Assembly (NCBI RefSeq): GCF_050920415.1
Contig: NZ_CP169309.1
Source: Escherichia coli
Lineage (GTDB): Bacteria > Pseudomonadota > Gammaproteobacteria > Enterobacterales > Enterobacteriaceae
Length of the DNA: 64,000 bases
Direction: 5' to 3' (one strand)
This document shows positions 34,238 through 61,046 of this stretch, piece by piece (position 1 is the first letter of the stretch; every line of letters begins with the position of its first letter). The notes under the pieces were generated by a model that was not told the origin of the DNA, ran no database searches, and saw nothing but the letters and a program-made list of their open reading frames with translations. The translations under genes were made by a program, and so were the position numbers.

Positions 34238-36130
34238 TTACATCACCAGACGGCGAATGTCAGACAGCGTGTTGTTAATGATGGTAATGAAACGGGCACC
34301 ATCAGCACCGTCGATCACGCGGTGGTCGAAGGAGAGAGAAATCGGCAGCATCAGACGCGGCACGAACTCTTTACCATTCCACACCGGCTCCATCGCGGAC
34401 TTGGAAACGCCTAGGATAGCCACTTCCGGCGCGTTCACAATCGGCGCGAAGTGGGTAGTACCCAGGCCGCCGATGCTGGAGATGGTGAAGCAACCGCCCT
34501 GCATTTCGCCCGCAGTCAGCTTACCGTCACGCGCTTTCTTAGAAATAGTCATCAGCTCGCGAGACAGCTCGATGATGCCTTTCTTGTTGACGTCTTTGAA
34601 TACCGGAACAACCAGGCCGTTCGGGGTATCCACCGCCACACCGATGTTGATGTATTTCTTCAGGGTCAGACGCTGACCGTCTTCCGACAGAGAACTGTTG
34701 AAGCGAGGCATCTGCTCAAGTGCCGCAGCAACGGCTTTCATGATGAAGACAACTGGGGTTATCTTCACATCCAGCTTACGTTTCGCTGCTTCTTCGTTCT
34801 GCTGTTTACGGAACGCTTCCAGCTCAGTGATATCGGTTTTGTCGAAGTGAGTAACATGCGGGATCATCACCCAGTTACGGCTCAGGTTCGCACCAGAGAT
34901 TTTCTGGATGCGGCCCAGTTCCACTTCTTCGATTTCACCAAACTTGCTGAAGTCCACCTTCGGCCACGGCAGCATGCCAGGGATACCGCCGCCAGTTGCC
35001 GCCGGAGCCGCTTCTGCACGTTTGATCGCTTCTTTCACGTAAGCCTGAACGTCTTCGCGCAGGATACGACCTTTACGGCCAGTGCCCTTCACTTTCGCCA
35101 GGTTAACGCCAAATTCGCGTGCCAGACGGCGGATCAGCGGAGTCGCGTGAACGTAAGCGTCGTTTTCAGCAAACTCAGATTTGCCTTCTGCTTTCGCAGC
35201 CGGTGCTGCTGCCGGAGTTTCAGCTTTTGCTGCCGGAGCCGGCGCTGCCGCTTCCTGTTTCGCAGGAGCTGCCGCAGGTGCTGCGCCTTCAACTTCGAAG
35301 ATCATAATCAGCGAGCCAGTTTTCACTTTGTCGCCAACGTTGACTTTCAGTTCCTTCACGACGCCTGCAAACGGAGCCGGAACTTCCATAGAAGCTTTAT
35401 CGCCTTCTACGGTGATCAGTGACTGTTCAGCGGCAACTTTGTCGCCCACTTTCACCATCACTTCGGTCACTTCAACTTCGTCACCGCCGATATCCGGAAC
35501 GTTAACTTCTTTCACGCCAGCCGCTGGTGCAGGGGCCGCTGCCGGAGCCGCTTCCTGTTTAGCCGCCGGAGCTGCCGCGCCTGCTTCACCCGCGACTTCG
35601 AAGACCATAATCAGCGAGCCGGTAGACACTTTGTCACCCACGGTCACTTTGATCTCTTTCACGGTGCCTGCAAACGGAGCCGGAACTTCCATAGAAGCCT
35701 TGTCGCCTTCTACGGTGATCAGCGACTGTTCAGCTTCAACTTTGTCGCCCACTTTCACCAGGATTTCGGTCACTTCGACTTCATCGCTGCCGATATCCGG
35801 AACATTTACGTCTTTTGCCGCCGCAGCCGCGGGTGCTGCTGCCGGAGCTGCTTCTTTCTTCTCTTCTGCCTGAGCAGGTGCAGCGTCAGCTGCACCGTCG
35901 GCGGAATCGAAAATCATAATCAGTGCGCCGGTCTGGGTTTTATCGCCAACAGAGACTTTGATCTCTTTAACGATACCCGCCTGCGGAGACGGTACTTCCA
36001 TAGAGGCTTTGTCGCCTTCTACGGTGATCAGCGACTGTTCGGCTTCAACTTTGTCGCCCACTTTGACCAGGATCTCGGTGATTTCAACTTCATCAGCCCC
36101 GATGTCCGGTACTTTGATTTCGATAGCCAT
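34238..36130 (-). CDS. aceF: Pyruvate dehydrogenase E2 (dihydrolipoamide acetyltransferase), three lipoyl domains
   Basis: ORF 630 aa; three tandem lipoyl domains ([10 protein letters not shown] x3) separated by Ala/Pro linkers; catalytic DHRVIDG motif. Confidence 0.96.
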
Positions 36131-36144
36131 TATTCTTTTACCTC

Positions 36145-38808
36145 TTACGCCAGACGCGGGTTAACTTTTTCTGCATCGATGTTGAATTTGGCGATTGCGT
36201 CAGCAACCACTTTCTTATCGATTTCGCCACGTTTAGCCAGTTCGCCCAGCGCCGCAACCACGACATAAGAAGCATCAACTTCGAAGTGGTGACGCAGGTT
36301 CTCACGGCTGTCGGAACGACCGAAGCCATCAGTACCCAGTACGCGGTAGTCGTCAGCCGGTACGTAAGTACGGACTTGCTCAGCGAACAGTTTCATATAG
36401 TCGGTAGATGCCACTGCCGGAGCGTCGTTCATCACCTGAGCGATATACGGAACGCGCGGAGTTTCCAGCGGGTGCAGCATGTTCCAGCGCTCACAATCCT
36501 GACCATCACGCGCCAGTTCGGTGAAGGATGTCACGCTATATACGTCAGAACCTACGCCGTAATCTTTCGCCAGGATCTCTGCCGCTTCACGGACGTGACG
36601 CAGGATAGAACCGGAGCCGAGCAGCTGAACTTTACCTTTGCTACCTTCAATGGTTTCGAGTTTGTAGATACCTTTACGGATACCTTCCTCAGCACCTTCC
36701 GGCATTGCCGGCATGTGGTAGTTTTCGTTCAGCGTAGTGATGTAGTAGTAAACGTTCTCTTGTTTCTCACCGTACATACGCTCCAGACCATCATGCATGA
36801 TGACAGCAACTTCGTAAGCGTAAGCCGGGTCGTAAGAAATACAGTTCGGGATAGTCAGCGACTGAATGTGGCTGTGACCATCTTCGTGCTGCAGACCTTC
36901 GCCGTTCAGGGTGGTACGACCGGAAGTACCGCCGATCAGGAAGCCACGTGCCTGCTGGTCGCCAGCAGCCCAGCACAGATCGCCGATACGCTGGAAGCCG
37001 AACATCGAGTAATAGATGTAGAACGGAATCATCGGCAGATTGTTGGTGCTGTAAGAGGTCGCCGCTGCCAGCCAGGAGCAACCTGCGCCCAGCTCGTTGA
37101 TCCCTTCTTGCAGAATCTGACCTTTCTCGTCTTCTTTATAGTAAGCAACCTGCTCGCGGTCCTGCGGGGTGTACTGCTGACCGTTCGGGCTGTAAATACC
37201 AATCTGACGGAACAGACCTTCCATACCGAAAGTACGCGCTTCGTCGGCGATGATCGGCACCAGACGATCTTTGATCGACTTGTTCTTCAGCATCACGTTC
37301 AGGGCACGAACGAAAGCGATAGTGGTAGAGATCTCTTTGCTCTGCTCTTCCAGCAGCGCGCCGAAGTCTTGCAGGCTCGGCAGCTCCAGCTTCTCGGTGA
37401 AGTTCGGCTGGCGGCTTGGCAGATAACCGTGCAATTTCTGACGCTGAGCGTGCAGATAGGTATGCTCTTCAGAACCTTCCGGGAAGGTGATGTACGGCAG
37501 TTTTTCGATATCAGCATCAGACACCGGCACATTGAAACGGTCGCGGATATGACGCACGCCGTCCATGTTCATTTTCTTAACCTGGTGCGCGATGTTTTTA
37601 CCTTCAGCTGCGTCGCCCATGCCGTAACCTTTAATGGTATGAGCAAGGATTACTGTCGCTTTGCCTTTGGTTTCCTGCGCTTTCTTGAATGCAGCGTAGA
37701 TTTTCTTCGGATCGTGACCACCACGGTTCAGCGCCCAGATCTGCTCATCAGTCCAGTCTGCAACCAGAGCTGCGGTTTCCGGATATTTACCGAAGAAGTG
37801 TTCACGAACGTACGCACCATCTTTCGATTTGAAGGTCTGGTAGTCGCCGTCAACGGTTTCGTTCATCAGCTGGATCAGTTTACCGCTGGTATCTTTACGC
37901 AGCAGCTCATCCCAACGGCTACCCCACATCACTTTGATCACGTTCCAGCCTGCACCTTCGAAGATGCCTTCCAGTTCGTTGATGATCTTGCCGTTACCGG
38001 TGACCGGGCCGTCAAGACGCTGCAGGTTACAGTTGATAACGAAGACCAGGTTATCCAGTTTTTCACGGGTAGCGATGGTGATCGCACCTTTGGATTCTGG
38101 TTCGTCCATCTCGCCGTCGCCGAGGAAGGCGTAAACGGTCTGTTTAGAAGTATCTTTCAGGCCACGGTGTTCCAGATATTTCAGGAATTTAGCCTGGTAA
38201 ATAGCACCAATCGGACCCAGACCCATAGATACGGTCGGGAACTGCCAGAATTCCGGCATCAGTTTCGGGTGCGGATAGGAAGAGAGGCCATTGCCGTGAA
38301 CTTCCTGACGGAAGTTATCCAGCTGCTCTTGAGTCAGACGACCTTCCAGGAAAGCACGTGCGTAAACGCCCGGGGAGATGTGGCCCTGGAAGTAAACCAG
38401 GTCGCCGCCATCCTGCTCGTTGCGCGCACGGAAGAAGTGGTTAAAGCACACATCATAAATGGTTGCGGACGACTGGAAGGACGCCATGTGGCCGCCCAGT
38501 TCGAGGTCTTTTTTCGACGCACGCAGAACCGTCATGATGGCGTTCCAGCGGATAGCTGAACGAATACGGCGTTCCAGTTCCAGATTACCCGGATACTCCG
38601 GTTGTTCTTCAACGGGGATGGTGTTGATGTAGTTGCTGATACCGGTGCCTGCGGCTACGTTGACACCGCCTTTGCGGGCTTCAGCAAGCAGTTGGTCGAT
38701 CAGATACTGAGCACGCTCAACACCTTCTTCACGGATGACCGATTCGATCGCCTGGAGCCAGTCGCGAGTTTCGATCGGATCCACGTCATTTGGGAAACGT
38801 TCTGACAT
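36145..38808 (-). CDS. aceE: Pyruvate dehydrogenase E1 component
   Basis: ORF 887 aa [24 protein letters not shown]...; thiamine-diphosphate enzyme. Confidence 0.96.
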
Positions 38809-38968: not shown

Positions 38969-39733
38969 CTAATTCTTTCGTTGTTCCAGACGACGCAGAG
39001 AACGCTCACGGCGGCTCTCTTCACGGCTTCTGTCGAGCAAAATTTCTTCGATAAAGGCCAGATGGCGATGCGATGCTTCGCGCGCTTCTTCCGGCTTACC
39101 GGCCATAATCGCTTCGAATATGCGAGTGCGGTGACTACTCACCAGCGGCAGCATCTCGCGACGCGAATAGAGCAATTCGAAGTTCTGACGGACATTCTGA
39201 GCCAACATCGGCTCCATACACCTTAGCAGATGAAGCAGAACTACATTGTGGGCTGCTTCGGTGACGGCAATCTGATACTGGAGGACGGCGTTTGATTCCG
39301 CGTCCAGATCGCCAGACTGCTGCGCCAGCTCTATGGCGTGGTGGAGTTCACGGATGCGTTCCTTGTCTTCATCGGTACTACGCAGCGCGGCGTAATAGGC
39401 GGCGATACCTTCCAGGGCGTGTCGTGTTTCGAGCAAGTCATACTGTGATTCAGGATGGTCGGAGAGCAGCTCCACCAGCGGATCGCTGAAACTTTGCCAG
39501 AGGCTGCTCTGAACAAAAGTGCCGCCACCCTGGCGACGAAGCAACAAGCCCTTTGCTTCGAGACGTTGAATCGCCTCACGCAAGGAGGGACGGGAGACGT
39601 CGAACTGTTTCGCCAGTTCGCGTTCCGGTGGGAGTTTTTCGCCCGGGCGGAGTGTGCCTTCGAGGATCAAAAACTCCAGTTGCTGCTCAATCACATCGGA
39701 GAGTTTTGGTTGGCGGATTTTGCTGTAGGCCAT
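38969..39733 (-). CDS. pdhR: GntR-family pyruvate-responsive transcriptional repressor
   Basis: ORF 38969..39766; recognised start [21 protein letters not shown] (ATG 39733); N-terminal GntR wHTH. Confidence 0.93.
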
Positions 39734-39764
39734 GAGTTCCTGTCTTAAGCCACTTGCCGAAGTC

Positions 39765-39781
39765 AATTGGTCTTACCAATT
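39765..39781. promoter_or_regulatory. PdhR operator (perfect 17-bp palindrome aattggtcttaccaatt)
   Basis: Palindrome directly visible ~30 bp upstream of pdhR start; matches GntR-type PdhR box. Confidence 0.75.
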
Positions 39782-40185
39782 TCATGTCTGTGACGCTAAA
39801 GTAACAAAGTATTCACCTTATGTCCATACAGGTTTTGATTGAAATCATGAAACTGTGCACATTTTAACAACTTGACATATATAACGTTTCAAAGTTGTAA
39901 CTATGCACAAATGTAGACTTTACGTAGGAAAGGGATTTTTTAACGATTATTAAACTATAAAAATCCGAATTGAACCGATTCACTTACCAATTTTGTGATT
40001 TTTAATTCAATTAAAACGAATTTAAATTCATTCTGCATATTGAGAGGGGTTGAGGCTGAGCTTTACAAACGGTTTCTTTTTAAGCAACTCATCTTCAACC
40101 ATGCATAAAGCGGGTGCATTCGCTGTCGCATACCATTATTCTTGATCTGACGGAAGTCTTTTTGTAACAATTCAAACTTCTTTGA

Positions 40186-40203
40186 TGTAAACAAATTAAT
40201 ACA
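40186..40203. promoter_or_regulatory. Candidate TyrR box (tgtaaa-N6-aataca) upstream of aroP
   Basis: Partial match to TGTAAA-N6-TTTACA, ~70-90 bp upstream of aroP ATG. Confidence 0.3.
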
Positions 40204-40273
40204 ACAAACGGAATTGCAAACTTACACACGCATCACTGCGTAGATCAAAAAAACAATCACCGCACGAGGTTTC

Positions 40274-41647
40274 ATGATGGAAGGTCAACAGCACGGCGAG
40301 CAGCTAAAGCGCGGCCTTAAAAACCGCCATATTCAGCTTATCGCGCTGGGTGGCGCGATAGGGACAGGGCTATTCCTGGGTAGCGCCTCCGTAATACAGT
40401 CCGCAGGGCCAGGGATTATCCTGGGATACGCCATTGCTGGTTTTATCGCCTTTCTGATCATGCGTCAGCTGGGTGAAATGGTGGTCGAAGAACCTGTCGC
40501 AGGCTCCTTTAGCCACTTTGCTTATAAATACTGGGGCAGTTTTGCCGGTTTCGCCTCTGGCTGGAACTACTGGGTACTGTACGTTTTAGTTGCCATGGCA
40601 GAGCTGACTGCCGTGGGTAAATACATTCAGTTCTGGTATCCGGAAATCCCAACCTGGGTTTCTGCCGCCGTGTTCTTTGTGGTGATCAACGCCATCAACC
40701 TGACAAACGTAAAAGTGTTTGGTGAGATGGAGTTCTGGTTTGCCATTATCAAAGTTATCGCGGTGGTAGCAATGATCATCTTCGGCGGCTGGCTGCTATT
40801 CAGCGGCAACGGCGGCCCGCAGGCGACCGTTAGCAACCTGTGGGATCAGGGTGGTTTCCTGCCGCACGGCTTCACCGGGCTGGTGATGATGATGGCGATT
40901 ATCATGTTCTCTTTCGGCGGTCTGGAACTGGTGGGGATCACCGCAGCAGAAGCTGATAATCCGGAGCAAAGTATCCCGAAAGCAACTAACCAGGTTATCT
41001 ACCGCATCCTGATTTTCTACATTGGTTCGTTAGCCGTTCTGCTCTCGCTGATGCCATGGACCCGCGTTACTGCTGATACCAGTCCGTTTGTACTGATCTT
41101 CCACGAATTGGGCGATACCTTTGTGGCTAATGCGCTGAACATCGTGGTACTGACTGCTGCGCTCTCCGTGTACAACAGCTGCGTATATTGCAACAGCCGT
41201 ATGCTGTTTGGTCTGGCACAACAGGGCAACGCGCCAAAAGCGCTGGCGTCTGTCGACAAACGCGGTGTACCGGTTAACACTATTCTGGTGTCTGCGCTGG
41301 TTACGGCATTGTGCGTGCTGATTAACTACCTTGCACCGGAATCCGCATTCGGACTGTTAATGGCGCTGGTGGTATCTGCACTGGTCATCAACTGGGCGAT
41401 GATCAGTCTGGCGCATATGAAATTCCGTCGTGCCAAACAAGAACAAGGCGTGGTAACTCGCTTCCCTGCCCTGCTTTATCCGCTGGGTAACTGGATCTGC
41501 CTGCTGTTTATGGCGGCGGTACTGGTGATTATGCTGATGACCCCAGGAATGGCGATTTCGGTATACCTGATCCCGGTATGGCTGATCGTGTTAGGTATCG
41601 GCTATCTGTTTAAAGAGAAAACCGCCAAAGCCGTAAAAGCGCATTAA
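40274..41647 (+). CDS. aroP: Aromatic amino acid:H+ symporter (APC family)
   Basis: ORF 457 aa, 12-TM amino acid permease. Confidence 0.95.
   Translation: MMEGQQHGEQLKRGLKNRHIQLIALGGAIGTGLFLGSASVIQSAGPGIILGYAIAGFIAFLIMRQLGEMVVEEPVAGSFSHFAYKYWGSFAGFASGWNYWVLYVLVAMAELTAVGKYIQFWYPEIPTWVSAAVFFVVINAINLTNVKVFGEMEFWFAIIKVIAVVAMIIFGGWLLFSGNGGPQATVSNLWDQGGFLPHGFTGLVMMMAIIMFSFGGLELVGITAAEADNPEQSIPKATNQVIYRILIFYIGSLAVLLSLMPWTRVTADTSPFVLIFHELGDTFVANALNIVVLTAALSVYNSCVYCNSRMLFGLAQQGNAPKALASVDKRGVPVNTILVSALVTALCVLINYLAPESAFGLLMALVVSALVINWAMISLAHMKFRRAKQEQGVVTRFPALLYPLGNWICLLFMAAVLVIMLMTPGMAISVYLIPVWLIVLGIGYLFKEKTAKAVKAH

Positions 41648-58657: not shown

Positions 58658-61046
<2,389 letters not shown>

Follow-up and report, generated by a model that had tools for sequence, protein, structure and literature searches.

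In this work we have examined a 17-bp element in a 64,000-nt stretch of Escherichia coli DNA (hereafter the window), and we conclude, with a probability of about 97%, that it is the autoregulatory operator of the pdhR-aceE-aceF-lpd operon, the binding of PdhR being carried over from the K-12 site by sequence identity. The operator is already known: it is the Ppdh operator of K-12, present here in another E. coli strain. Its significance here is one of correct annotation only, and it shows that such an operator is recognisable from sequence alone. In the cell it is the switch through which the pyruvate level governs how strongly the pyruvate dehydrogenase complex is expressed, and both the PdhR regulon and the pyruvate biosensors built on PdhR have it as their reference site. 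The identity of the element, its position, its regulator and targets and its evolutionary footprint were computed in this study; the binding of PdhR, the antagonism by pyruvate and the finding that the box suffices when moved to a foreign promoter are taken from the literature.

The 17-mer AATTGGTCTTACCAATT occupies positions 39765-39781 exactly on the plus strand of the window, and its minus-strand reading, which is that of the pdhR strand, is AATTGGTaagACCAATT, or AATTGGT-aag-ACCAATT. Comparison of the 17-mer with its own reverse complement showed that the arms at 39765-39771 and 39775-39781 are complementary at 7 of 7 positions, and that the CTT between them, with C at position 8 and T at position 10, does not pair with itself and forms an unpaired spacer of 3 bp. 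No symmetry was gained by outward extension beyond 39765-39781. The architecture of the operator is 7+3+7, with the arms AATTGGT and ACCAATT. The initial annotation had spoken of a perfect 17-bp palindrome; the 17-mer is present where it was placed, but the pairing is confined to the 7-bp arms. As a generic 7-3-7 inverted repeat the operator is unremarkable, since the 64-kb window contains 7 such repeats compared with 3.8 ± 1.9 in shuffled sequence. The match to the specific pattern AATTGGTNNNACCAATT, however, is far beyond chance: this exact pattern occurs once in the window, whereas 0.00 occurrences were expected from 100 dinucleotide-preserving shuffles (0 of 100 contained it), and the analytical expectation is about 2.4e-4 per window. 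The same AT-rich spacer holds another perfect 7-3-7 inverted repeat, TTTTAATTCAATTAAAA, about 220 bp away at 40000-40016; it is of low complexity and plausibly arose by chance.

The element matches the PdhR box consensus AATTGGTnnnACCAATT, for which we used the version of PMC7660256, at all 14 of the 14 specified positions, with the GGTnnnACC core intact. It also has the form of an operator of the GntR family, FadR subfamily: TTGGT-AAG-ACCAA is a palindrome rich in A/T which contains the TKGT/ACMA boxes and has its GT and AC separated by 3 nt. Palindromes with these boxes and this 3-nt spacing are typical of FadR-subfamily sites, those of PdhR included (PMC4494728). The paradigm of the GntR/FadR group is FadR itself (FadR-DNA complexes PDB 1H9T and 1HW2), whose operator shares the TKGT/ACMA palindrome and the 3-nt GT-AC gap with the PdhR box; like PdhR, FadR is a winged-helix dimer which sits on a palindrome and is released by a small acidic ligand (PMC4494728). 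The two differ in the outer bases of the arms (AATT in the PdhR box), which give PdhR its specificity, and in the effector, which is acyl-CoA for FadR and pyruvate for PdhR. The FadR model matched the PdhR encoded in the window weakly, with 37 bits.

The comparison with K-12 is the evidence which allows published binding data to be transferred to the window. A 590-bp stretch over the aroP-pdhR spacer is about 99% identical to K-12 MG1655; the alignment contains six substitutions (at five sites, one being a dinucleotide), and all of them fall outside the operator and the core promoter, which are identical. The reportedly primary footprinting paper for the PdhR operator is that of Quail and Guest from 1995. 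The window operator maps to K-12 positions 122044-122060, with its centre at 122052, and the K-12 Ppdh operator (Quail & Guest 1995; RegulonDB; Anzai et al. 2020, Table 1) agrees with it in all 17 bp, in the distances to the pdhR ATG and to the transcription start, and in the promoter which flanks it. In the data of Anzai et al. 2020 (PMC7660256), who give the consensus AATTGGTnnnACCAATT, the sequence AATTGGTaagACCAATT at K-12 122052 alone matches the PdhR box at 14/14 positions, and its peak is the highest of the 35 obtained by gSELEX. The boxes of cyoA (AATTGGTataACCAATg), ndh (ttTTGGTatgACCAATg), lldP (AATTGGccctACCAATT), grcA and glcD have the GGTnnnACC core and the 7+3+7 layout in common with it but match at 11-13 of 14 positions, and in the PMC7660256 table the pdhR box alone reaches 14/14 and has the highest binding intensity. 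The pdhR promoter fragment was also used as the positive control for PdhR in EMSA and ChIP by Gohler et al. 2011 (PMC3265435) and likewise in EMSA by another group (PMC11508082). The initial annotation had identified the element as a PdhR operator with a GntR-type PdhR box. The 14/14 consensus match, the identity with K-12, the PdhR gene downstream and the published gSELEX, EMSA and ChIP results all bear this out, and PdhR binding, whose absence from this fragment it regarded as fatal to the idea, has been published for the identical K-12 sequence by these same three methods.

The features of the locus are collected in Table 1. The PdhR encoded in the window scored 495.7 bits against NF007001 (cut-off 330), and the cognate regulator is thus encoded in the same genome. 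The start of lpd (MSTEIKTQ) was picked from the translation and from the 1425-nt lpdA annotation in CFT073.

Table 1. Coordinates in the window of the operator, its promoter and the neighbouring genes
Feature	Position	Strand	Basis
PdhR operator (PdhR box)	39765..39781	-	Consensus match, K-12 identity, published gSELEX, arms invariant in 80 species
pdhR transcription start (A)	39791..39791	-	5'RACE in PMC2759082, transferred to the window, whose sequence is identical here; no variation among 66 distinct orthologous upstream regions
Predicted pdhRp -10 hexamer TACTTT	39798..39803	-	At -12..-7 relative to the published start; unchanged in all 66 distinct enterobacterial sequences
Predicted pdhRp -35 hexamer TGGACA	39821..39826	-	17-nt spacing to the -10, distance to the published start; 99% conserved
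pdhR, 254-aa GntR/FadR-subfamily pyruvate-sensing repressor, first gene of the operon	38969..39733	-	Full-length match to the NCBIfam equivalog NF007001 (E = 2.8e-149); annotated as such by RefSeq in matching genomes
aceE, pyruvate dehydrogenase E1	36145..38808	-	TIGR00759 equivalog, 1645 bits
aceF, dihydrolipoyllysine acetyltransferase E2	34238..36130	-	NF008814 equivalog, 1099 bits
lpd, dihydrolipoyl dehydrogenase E3, 474 aa	32489..33913	-	TIGR01350 equivalog, 501 bits
aroP, divergent	40274-41647	+	aroP ATG at 40274

Olvera et al. 2009 determined the transcription start of pdhR by 5'RACE as the A which ends GTATGGACATAAGGTGAATACTTTGTTACTTTAGCGTCA, at -58 from the ATG, in agreement with an earlier published start (PMC2759082). 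Counted from this start, the operator spans +11..+27 and lies inside the transcribed leader. Between it and the pdhR ATG (A at 39733, minus strand) there are 31 nt, so that the operator is situated 32-48 nt upstream of the ATG, and the distance of about 30 bp from the pdhR start codon given in the initial annotation was correct. The same annotation had put the element at the pdhR-aceEF promoter, and pdhR-aceE-aceF-lpd are indeed found downstream of it on the minus strand, but the site follows the transcription start and is not upstream of the promoter. The box is at pdhRp in a place where repression is possible. When 39650-40350 was scanned with the sigma-70 consensus, no promoter was detected. 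The scan missed pdhRp because the -10 hexamer is weak (3 of 6 consensus bases) and falls below its threshold, and the empty result is no evidence against a promoter. In a biosensor study, a synthetic promoter came under PdhR- and pyruvate-dependent control when it carried the box ATTGGTAAGACCAAT at 11 bp from its +1 (bioRxiv 10.1101/2025.07.14.664704), a placement with which the geometry of the window operator agrees.

How strongly has this site been maintained in evolution? The region 39500-40400 is 100% identical to that of strain MFDS1022581 and has matches in 5423 of the 5426 complete E. coli genomes. A 43-bp stretch with the box at its centre is single-copy in 5418 of these 5426 genomes and at least 99% identical in 5383. 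Species-representative genomes were scanned with the PdhR protein, which gave 80 loci from about 30 enterobacterial genera and Serratia. The box is located 47-65 nt upstream of pdhR in this set, and not one arm mismatch was found in any of the 80 species, though the operator spacer takes five forms (AAG, ATG, CAT, CAG and ATT). We then aligned the 140 nt upstream of pdhR (66 distinct sequences) with MAFFT. All 14 arm columns are 100% conserved, compared with 92-94% for the spacer columns; conservation at 39782-39793, between the box and the -10 region, is 56-95% except for three invariant columns, and that of the bases adjoining the box on its other side is 80-100%. The A of the start site at 39791 is invariant in this alignment. 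The footprint is that of a dimer site, in which the arms are constrained and the spacer and most flank columns are free, and such a pattern speaks for a sequence-specific dimer constraint and not for the constraint of an RNA stem. Invariant arms with a variable spacer and flanks fit recognition by a protein dimer. Fourteen invariant arm bases in 80 species around a free spacer make a clean illustration of this principle and are not a new finding.

The alignment contains further conserved elements. Positions 39794-39819, the -35 to -10 interval of pdhRp with its spacer, are invariant in the 66 distinct enterobacterial sequences, and a conserved FNR/CRP-like sequence, TTGATTGAAATCAT, is present at 39835-39848, centred near -50.5, which agrees with the FNR-type site TTGATnnnnATCAA at 9 of 10 positions. 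Crp and Fnr are among the regulators listed in the literature for the pdhR promoter. The invariant interval together with the conserved TTGATTGAAATCAT suggests further regulator sites. Two Serratia species (loci L080 and L081) have, besides the canonical box at -50, a second, degenerate one, AAATGGTATTACCAACG, whose core TGGTATTACCA is intact, about 190 nt upstream of pdhR (approximately 1311-1327 of the locus).

We propose the following mechanism for the operator. A dimer of PdhR, a GntR-family protein of the FadR subfamily, would place one winged-helix domain on each of the 7-bp arms, which are 3 bp apart and include the GGTnnnACC core. Because the operator covers +11..+27, bound PdhR would overlap the footprint of RNA polymerase at its downstream edge and stand in the path of the enzyme. 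Productive initiation at pdhRp, or escape from it, would then be blocked, with less PdhR and less pyruvate dehydrogenase complex as the outcome; as to which step is affected (polymerase binding, isomerisation or escape), we infer it from the geometry. When pyruvate rises, it would bind the C-terminal domain of PdhR and lower the affinity of the protein for DNA, and pdhR-aceEF-lpd would be derepressed. That pyruvate lowers the affinity of PdhR for DNA and derepresses pdhR-aceEF-lpd has been reported (PMC3265435; PMC2759082), and the entries PDB 5KVR and 5TPM represent two domains of PdhR, the N- and the C-terminal one. A caveat is that 1 mM pyruvate did not reduce the pdhR peak in gSELEX (9889 with pyruvate versus 9234 without), unlike most other peaks (PMC7660256, Table 1). 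An in vitro effect of pyruvate at the pdhR operator is not evident in that assay, and it may be that this insensitivity reflects saturation at the strongest site.

Could the sequence serve something other than PdhR autoregulation? One objection is that an inverted repeat without function has arisen by chance in an AT-rich spacer. Repeats of the 7-3-7 type are common (7 in the window versus about 3.8 expected), and there is another at 40000-40016. However, this 14-base pattern is expected only about 2e-4 times per window and is invariant in 80 species whose flanks vary; the chance reading, which we consider practically negligible, is refuted by the statistics, by the conservation and by the published binding. 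As the operator is transcribed (+11..+27), it might instead act mainly as RNA, a 7-bp hairpin in the pdhR leader which controls stability or translation. Both arms do pair in the minimum-free-energy fold of the 61-nt leader, but this fold, at -10.7 kcal/mol, is not outstanding (z = -0.82), since 40 of 200 shuffled sequences fold equally well, and an Rfam search of the leader gave no match at E <= 1. The hairpin is also 31 nt from the ATG and clear of the AGGA ribosome-binding site (39738-39741). The arms carry no substitution, compensatory or other, in the 66 distinct orthologous sequences, whereas the loop and flanks vary, which points to base-specific recognition of a fixed sequence and not to the maintenance of pairing. 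The 61-nt leader thus shows neither stability beyond its composition, nor covariation, nor membership of an RNA family, and we regard a mainly RNA-based role as very unlikely.

Two other possibilities accept the element as an operator and differ from PdhR autoregulation in the regulator or in the target. The box could be used, also or instead, by a paralogous FadR-subfamily regulator with a nearly identical operator, for example LldR or GlcC. The lldP site AATTGGccctACCAATT agrees with the PdhR box at 13 of 14 positions and is bound by PdhR (PMC7660256), and the window PdhR scored 216 bits against the LldR model, so that cross-recognition is plausible in principle. In the gSELEX study of LldR, on the other hand, the sole mention of PdhR is as co-regulator of lld and glc, and the pdhR promoter is not reported as a target of LldR (PMC10272880). 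Across the 80 species the box is invariably tied to pdhR itself, and we consider the use of the box by a paralogue to be unlikely. Might the box also regulate the divergent aroP, as a shared operator in the aroP-pdhR spacer? It is located within a divergent spacer of 540 bp (start codon to start codon), and the site belongs to type A in the classification of Anzai et al. (PMC7660256). Yet 493 nt separate it from the aroP ATG (40274), it is downstream of the pdhR start site, and aroP was unchanged by knockout or overexpression of pdhR, with log changes of about 0 (Gohler et al., supplement). Moreover, in about 1060 E. coli genomes an island of more than 5 kb parts the box from aroP. A role in aroP control seems to us highly improbable, and autoregulation of pdhR-aceE-aceF-lpd by PdhR is the reading which we retain.

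We also looked at other box-like sequences in the window. At two or fewer mismatches the sole other match is AATTCGTACTACCAACT at 58676-58692 (12/14), where 0.33 are expected by chance. The sequence is part of the final ddlB codons, precedes the ftsQ ATG (58656) by 20-36 nt and has a broken GGT core. We rejected it as a PdhR box on the grounds of the broken core and its position in ddlB coding sequence; it is also absent from the gSELEX list (PMC7660256) and differs from the site which Gohler et al. predicted for dcw, which is at K-12 89542-89565, outside the window (PMC3265435). It is probably a chance match. A further sequence, CTTACCAATTT at 39983-39993 (pdhR strand AAATTGGTAAG), repeats 11 nt of the operator, its half-site and spacer, exactly and in direct orientation 211 bp further upstream of pdhR. 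No second arm was recognisable beside it. Besides Escherichia, just two Kluyvera species have the copy at this offset, and it is absent in Salmonella, Citrobacter, Klebsiella and others, as well as in CFT073, whose spacer is interrupted by an island. We did not adopt it as part of the operator, as it is unconserved outside Escherichia and Kluyvera and missing from CFT073. In Escherichia and some Kluyvera it might be an auxiliary half-site which assists the recruitment or looping of PdhR, a role we think quite unlikely; if true, it would be a lineage-specific refinement of pdhR autoregulation.

The aroP-pdhR spacer itself differs among strains. In about 1060 of 5423 E. coli genomes (about a fifth), CFT073 and NRG 857C among them, it is split at approximately 39875-39923. 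The insert in CFT073 is about 5.5 kb long (L082:6875-12484) and contains an IS3 transposase, three bacteriocin-immunity genes, an HNH gene and a 593-aa gene annotated 'tssD'; it is consistent with the PAIusp island of PMC7142922. In the spacers split by the island, the operator and the core promoter remain with pdhR. On the aroP side, TGTAACAATTCAAACTTCTTTGATGTAAACA is found upstream of aroP at approximately 40164-40195 and resembles tandem TyrR boxes (TGTAAAN6TTTACA), which may have a part in aroP regulation.
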